From the NCBI RefSeq assembly GCF_003334405.1, contig NZ_QOWM01000003.1: 64,000 bases of DNA, one strand, 5' to 3'. This DNA comes from Escherichia coli. GTDB lineage: Bacteria > Pseudomonadota > Gammaproteobacteria > Enterobacterales > Enterobacteriaceae. A program made the translations under genes and the position numbers. Each line of letters begins with the position of its first letter. The stretch's first letter is position 1. The notes under the pieces are model-generated. The model did no database searches and had not been told where the DNA came from. It worked only from the letters and a program-made list of their open reading frames with translations. Below are positions 7,157-9,681 of the stretch, piece by piece.

Positions 7157-9681
<2,525 letters not shown>

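Follow-up and report, generated by a model that had tools for sequence, protein, structure and literature searches.

The window, by which we mean the whole 64,000-nucleotide stretch of Escherichia coli DNA that was analysed, carries the diguanylate cyclase gene dgcQ (yedQ) as a reading frame of 564 codons that is broken by an in-frame amber codon. Of 5,426 complete E. coli genomes, 5,364 have a dgcQ that this 1,695-nt stretch matches, and over its full length it is 100% identical to the gene of strain 55989 and of several O104:H4 strains, 2011C-3493 among them, as well as to that of VR50 and many others. Compared with dgcQ of a K-12 derivative there are 24 nucleotide differences and no gaps, and three amino-acid differences besides the stop. 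The changes are mostly synonymous on both sides of the stop, with eight synonymous and two non-synonymous changes upstream and 12 and one downstream. The gene order yedI–yodC–dgcQ–yedP, with yedP convergent, is conserved, as seen in the annotation of identical or near-identical genomes and in the open reading frames (ORFs) of the window. The name dgcQ, given to the gene in an earlier sequence-only reading, is borne out by this normal synteny and by the gap-free alignment to K-12 dgcQ. A chance pattern of ORFs was ruled out, as the whole 1,695 nt aligns in this way. The 3′ ends of dgcQ and yedP overlap by 4 nt at 8848–8851, as in other E. coli, and because yedP is convergent with dgcQ, the premature stop is not polar on a downstream gene.

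The two half-ORFs lie in one frame. The first begins with GTG and has 311 codons, the second begins with ATG and has 251, and together with the TAG and a single Ala codon between them they add up to 564 codons, the length of K-12 DgcQ. The window reads ...GAA CTG GCC TTG CTG GCG TAG GCA ATG GAA CAT... around the stop, and an uninterrupted 564-residue DgcQ frame is absent from it. The TAG is codon 312 of dgcQ, which is CAG (Gln) in K-12. The change is a C>T transition at 8090, or gene position 934 (Q312amber, CAG>TAG), and the T in place of the K-12 C is the sole difference within 100 nt of the site. The sequence-only reading had described the same two ORFs, shared frame, stop codon and total length, all of which are confirmed by the sequence and the ORF list, and the peptide that it quoted around the stop matches the window exactly. 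Each half has also been deposited as a protein in its own right, the N-terminal half with 311 residues (AFS56652.1 and others) and the C-terminal half with 251 (AFS56653.1 and others), each on at least 1,000 contigs.

DgcQ has the architecture TM1–CHASE7–TM2–GGDEF with an A-site and an I-site, and all of these elements are present in the window (Table 1). TM1 lies at about residues 22–48 by hydropathy, and CHASE7 occupies residues 41–227 (Pfam on the K-12 protein, E = 6.8e-95). Given the positions of TM1, TM2 and the Pfam domains, codon 312 falls in the periplasmic region, after CHASE7 and before TM2 and the GGEEF motif; the hydropathy profile and the Pfam layout thus agree with the earlier placement of the stop in the sensor region. 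Sequence matches in the PDB cover the GGDEF domain only (residues about 390–560), and none was found for the DgcQ sensor.

Table 1. Features of the dgcQ locus and RNA genes of the window, with positions in the window
Feature	Position	Strand	Basis or remark
rseX small RNA	1436-1525	-	expected E. coli position
Shine-Dalgarno-like GTGGGGAGT of the native GTG	7141..7149	+	anti-SD duplex -8.0 kcal/mol, 7-nt spacer
dgcQ (yedQ) frame	7157..8851	+	GTG start to TAA, 564 codons, broken at codon 312
N-terminal ORF	7157..8092	+	311 codons + TAG; TM1, CHASE7 and most of the periplasmic region; without catalytic domain
Amber codon TAG, codon 312	8090..8092	+	sequence; K-12 comparison; Richter et al. 2014 Table S1
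C-terminal ORF from ATG codon 314	8096..8851	+	251 aa: ~42 periplasmic residues, TM2, GGDEF domain
Second in-frame ATG, codon 324	8126..8128	+	anti-SD duplex -6.5 kcal/mol, spacer 6
TM2, ~codons 355-381	8219..8299	+	Kyte-Doolittle, 19-residue windows above 1.6
GGDEF domain, codons 398-557	8348..8827	+	Pfam PF00990, E = 4e-47, on K-12 orthologue
I-site RAQD, residues 468-471, intact	8558-8569	+	motif in window sequence
A-site GGEEF, residues 477-481, intact	8585-8599	+	motif in window sequence
DsrA small RNA	9862-9948	+	expected E. coli position
tRNA-Gly/Cys/Leu cluster	43173-43475	+	expected E. coli position
C0465 small RNA	61696-61773	-	expected E. coli position

We counted the two alleles by megablast, using a 40-mer with the variable base at its centre; any 28-nt seed then has to cover that base. 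The TAG 40-mer occurs in 210 of 5,426 complete E. coli genomes (3.9%). The comparison with other dgcQ genes that the sequence-only reading called for identifies CAG (Gln) as the sense codon at this position; K-12 has it, as do at least 3,975 complete genomes. In all carriers examined, the RefSeq annotation labels dgcQ a pseudogene and adds 'internal stop'. Carriers were isolated from humans, pigs, chickens, dogs, water and sediment, a range wider than enteroaggregative E. coli (EAEC). The mutation has been described before. Richter et al. 2014 (EMBO Mol Med, PMC4287979) list 'yedQ 934 CAG (Q) -> TAG (STOP) ... Confirmed' in their Table S1 and verified the TAG by resequencing in 55989, HUSEC041 and the 2011 outbreak strain LB226692; the gene position 934 was obtained independently here and equals their value. 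A stop at 312 followed by an AUG at 314 is also given for at least six EAEC strains, as relayed from Povolotsky & Hengge 2016 by a later paper (JBC 2024, PMC11327459).

These data bear directly on the possibility that the true codon is a sense codon and that the TAG is a sequencing or assembly error, which is conceivable in general for any single-base difference and for which nothing further speaks. The sequence-only reading had asked whether reads would show a sense codon at 8090..8092, and the answer is effectively negative, given the targeted resequencing of the TAG in three strains and its presence in 210 independent complete assemblies on a coherent haplotype. Error is excluded for the allele and very unlikely for this particular genome; we give it almost no weight. 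A real stop stands where orthologues have a sense codon, as expected of a pseudogene by nonsense mutation.

To define the haplotype, we compared 10 carriers with the window: 55989, 2011C-3493, VR50, DLI.5a, Z217-2, APEC O78:H4, ST648, MDR_56, chicken 104 and GPEC60-33-648. Private SNPs aside, all 10 are identical from window position 7670 to about 9973. The first five differ from the window at 0–5 positions over the 3.7–7.7 kb compared. The APEC O78:H4 carrier is identical to the window rightwards of 6737 and has 31 SNPs leftwards. ST648, MDR_56, chicken 104 and GPEC60-33-648 have 45–48 SNPs relative to the window, all but one of them left of 7670; 12–13 of these lie within the first 513 nt of dgcQ, and the sequence from the TAG through 9973 is identical. 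Judged from these comparisons, the TAG is on a single haplotype block, about 2.3 kb long or longer, which recombination has set into different flanking backgrounds.

The same 841-nt 3′ haplotype with CAG was found in only four genomes. Two of these, PC6 and SX12, have an intact and normally annotated dgcQ and differ from the window by four SNPs in 6.8 kb, one of which is the C at 8090; by sequence, their gene is the apparent near-ancestral allele. With 210 genomes against 4, the TAG form is about 50 times as common as its CAG counterpart on this 3′ haplotype, an excess that does not point to a strongly deleterious allele. No second stop or indel was found in dgcQ of the 10 carriers, which show one private SNP within the gene. 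Disabling lesions beyond the first were likewise not found, but 10 carriers are too few and the allele too young for dN/dS. This lack of the decay of an old dead gene among the 10 carriers would fit a young allele, but it would also fit a retained function.

We considered recurrent mutation at a hotspot and rejected it, as the TAG occurs on one 3′ haplotype in all carriers sampled, which differ only in the flanks or within the gene's first 513 nt. Nor does the sequence GCGCAGGC at this position form a Dcm CCWGG site, and therefore deamination of 5-methylcytosine does not apply. Very-short-patch repair by Vsr restores C:G from T:G mismatches in the context NTWGG. The mutant G-TAGG at 8088–8093 fits this context, and a vsr gene lies 3.4 kb upstream (4256–4726). 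In a TAG/CAG heteroduplex Vsr repair should favour CAG, yet the TAG spread by recombination.

The surrounding sequence has a mixed ancestry as well. The first 25 kb of the window are about 100% identical to several strains, and positions 1–30585 align to NZ_AP022215.1 gap-free at 99.95% identity. The fliD–fliC (H-antigen) segment at 30586–33120 has no alignment to NZ_AP022215.1 and is 100% identical to other strains, for example Res13-Lact and MLI023K1. Beyond it, at 33121–63546, identity to NZ_AP022215.1 falls from 99.95% to 98.7%. The window as a whole is a mosaic produced by recombination, and a junction lies at the flagellin locus. A porin gene at 65–1125 on the minus strand is a frameshifted pseudogene according to the annotation of NZ_AP022215.1. 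Between fliE and yedF, at about 22820–26091, lie emrE, ybcL, ybcM, an IS200/IS605 tnpA and the truncated remnants of a helix-turn-helix gene and of an SOS-response-associated peptidase gene. The DLP12 prophage region is where emrE, ybcL and ybcM are found in K-12; here the segment resembles an island, or what is left of a prophage, at another site.

The sequence-only reading had offered two alternatives, a point-mutation pseudogene or separate fragments through re-initiation at Met 8096, and both are readings already given by Richter et al. 2014 (PMC4287979). A restart at AUG314 or AUG324 would produce a TM2–GGDEF protein of 251 or 241 residues, a sensor-less and deregulated diguanylate cyclase; we regard this outcome as possible but unlikely. 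The ATG at 8096 lies 3 nt past the stop (TAG GCA ATG; context TAGGCAATG), and Richter et al. proposed that translation restarts at this ATG, two codons past the stop, by translational coupling (PMC4287979). However, we found no usable Shine-Dalgarno element for it: the anti-SD duplex amounts to -3.2 kcal/mol at a 1-nt spacer, compared with -8.0 kcal/mol at 7 nt for the native start, and a restart there would therefore depend on the terminating ribosome alone. Such restarts are possible in E. coli but usually inefficient. AUG324 has a moderate SD-like pairing (-6.5 kcal/mol at a 6-nt spacer), which counts in favour of a restart. This ATG, at 8126 and 34 nt past the stop, is preceded by the G-rich, SD-like CGGGGCGGC at 8111–8119 and is better paired than ATG 8096. 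An internal promoter for the C-terminal ORF was not found near the stop, the count of promoter-like sites being no higher than in shuffled sequence. The intact GGEEF and RAQD motifs and the lack of further lesions in the 10 carriers also speak for a restart, but TM1 and most of the sensor would be missing from the fragment, which makes its membrane insertion and the dimerisation for GGDEF activity uncertain. Overexpression of a Shigella dgcQ whose stop is at codon 56 and whose next Met is at 59 increased c-di-GMP, although the second protein band seen there has the size of the full-length protein and not of a restart product (PMC11327459, discussion).

That band bears equally on a leaky stop. 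Near-cognate decoding of the UAG, mostly by tRNA-Gln, would yield a little full-length and normally regulated DgcQ, so that the gene would be down-tuned and not null; we think this fairly improbable. Low-level readthrough of UAG is established in E. coli, and readthrough by tRNA-Gln would restore the wild-type residue, but basal readthrough is expected to amount to a small fraction. Richter et al. named readthrough as a possibility (PMC4287979), and a nonsense-bearing Shigella dgcQ gave the full-length-size band (PMC11327459, discussion); against this, the stop of the window shows no unusual, readthrough-promoting RNA structure (100-nt fold, z = 0.07 against shuffles), and there is no amber suppressor among the three tRNAs of the window (Gly-GCC, Cys-GCA and Leu-UAA). 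The same lack of a local RNA structure signal, and of a dedicated tRNA in the window, speaks against programmed recoding, in which the UAG would be a conserved functional site for a non-standard amino acid or for regulated readthrough. No point in support of programmed recoding was found; the stop is a minority allele beside the CAG genomes and a near-identical intact haplotype exists, so that this reading is almost certainly wrong.

We conclude that the TAG is very probably a genuine, inherited nonsense allele that arose by one C>T event, was recombined into several backgrounds including 55989/O104:H4, and is best regarded as a loss-of-function allele or a strong hypomorph. In the mechanism that we propose, a single C>T on one dgcQ haplotype would have turned CAG312 into TAG, and homologous recombination would then have carried the TAG allele into several backgrounds of E. 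coli. Ribosomes that start at the native GTG must stop at codon 312, which leaves a membrane-anchored fragment of 311 residues with TM1 and CHASE7 but no catalytic domain. The signal-responsive, full-length cyclase would therefore be lost or present at trace levels. The intact GGDEF part might still be expressed at a low level, either through a coupled restart at one of the two codons AUG314 and AUG324 or through occasional near-cognate readthrough, both of which are plausible but unproven routes. The allele may accordingly leave a deregulated remnant.

A further reading is that the TAG has been selectively retained as a rewiring of the enzyme, either through a restart that gives a membrane-anchored GGDEF protein with no sensor or through re-association of the 311- and 251-residue fragments within the membrane as a two-piece enzyme, with a changed c-di-GMP output. 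If true, it would explain the spread by recombination, the roughly 50-fold frequency over the CAG haplotype and the absence of secondary decay, but we consider it quite improbable. Cellulose is still produced by 55989 and HUSEC041, both of which carry the TAG, and therefore the allele does not affect cellulose drastically in these two strains; since cellulose synthase is served by other cyclases, this is no proof of DgcQ activity. C-terminal DgcQ fragments of 241, 225 and 193 residues have been deposited from 31, 147 and 118 contigs, respectively, some of them on other haplotypes, and the 241-residue fragments in public protein data that start at the codon-324 Met are on a different dgcQ haplotype. 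This suggests that dgcQ has been interrupted independently in other E. coli lineages too.

The allele is an ordinary one, since it was described in 2014 and about 4% of the complete E. coli genomes carry it. The mutation itself, where it lies in the sensor domain, and the idea of a restart were already published in that year for the O104:H4/55989 lineage, and subsequent papers have taken them up again. What we add is the single origin, the recombinational spread beyond EAEC, the frequency of about 4%, the weak restart context, the near-ancestral CAG haplotype and the absence of secondary decay. The first four of these additions would matter only if the C-terminal remnant were shown to be made and active. 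For annotation, the value is that the two half-ORFs are one interrupted dgcQ and not two genes, and the allele is a further example of the remodelling that the c-di-GMP network of E. coli and Shigella has repeatedly undergone.

Nonsense codons followed closely by a possible start have precedents. The classical lacI and T4 rIIB restart mutants are reported cases of reinitiation after nonsense codons in E. coli, and Adhin & van Duin reportedly put forward a scanning model of reinitiation. Restarts occur where a start codon lies a few nucleotides from the premature stop, and a Shine-Dalgarno element helps. The dgcQ allele resembles the lacI and rIIB cases in having a start codon close to the premature stop, but no usable Shine-Dalgarno element precedes AUG314 of dgcQ. 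The Shigella flexneri 2457T gene (S2095), with its stop at codon 56 and Met at 59, gave increased c-di-GMP and two protein bands, the second of full-length size, when overexpressed in BL21 (PMC11327459, discussion). Like dgcQ of the window, S2095 has a nonsense codon upstream of an intact GGEEF motif and a Met a few codons later. It differs in that codon 56 is near TM1, so that almost the whole protein could be remade, and in its independent origin; the experimental support for c-di-GMP output on overexpression belongs to the codon-56 allele. In K-12 W3110, a premature stop in bcsQ abolishes the synthesis of cellulose (Serra et al. 2013, as cited in PMC4287979). It too is a single nonsense mutation that is fixed in a lineage and hits the network of biofilm formation and c-di-GMP output, but it affects another gene, and according to the same citation its phenotype has been demonstrated and is reversed by repair of the codon. 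The window does not necessarily come from an O104:H4 strain, as its flanks are closer to other strains: three positions in 7.7 kb separate it from 55989, and in the fliC region it agrees with Res13-Lact, MLI023K1 and others. At dgcQ itself, the yedQ 934 allele of 55989, HUSEC041 and LB226692 has the same gene, nucleotide, codon change and TAGGCAATG context as the window.
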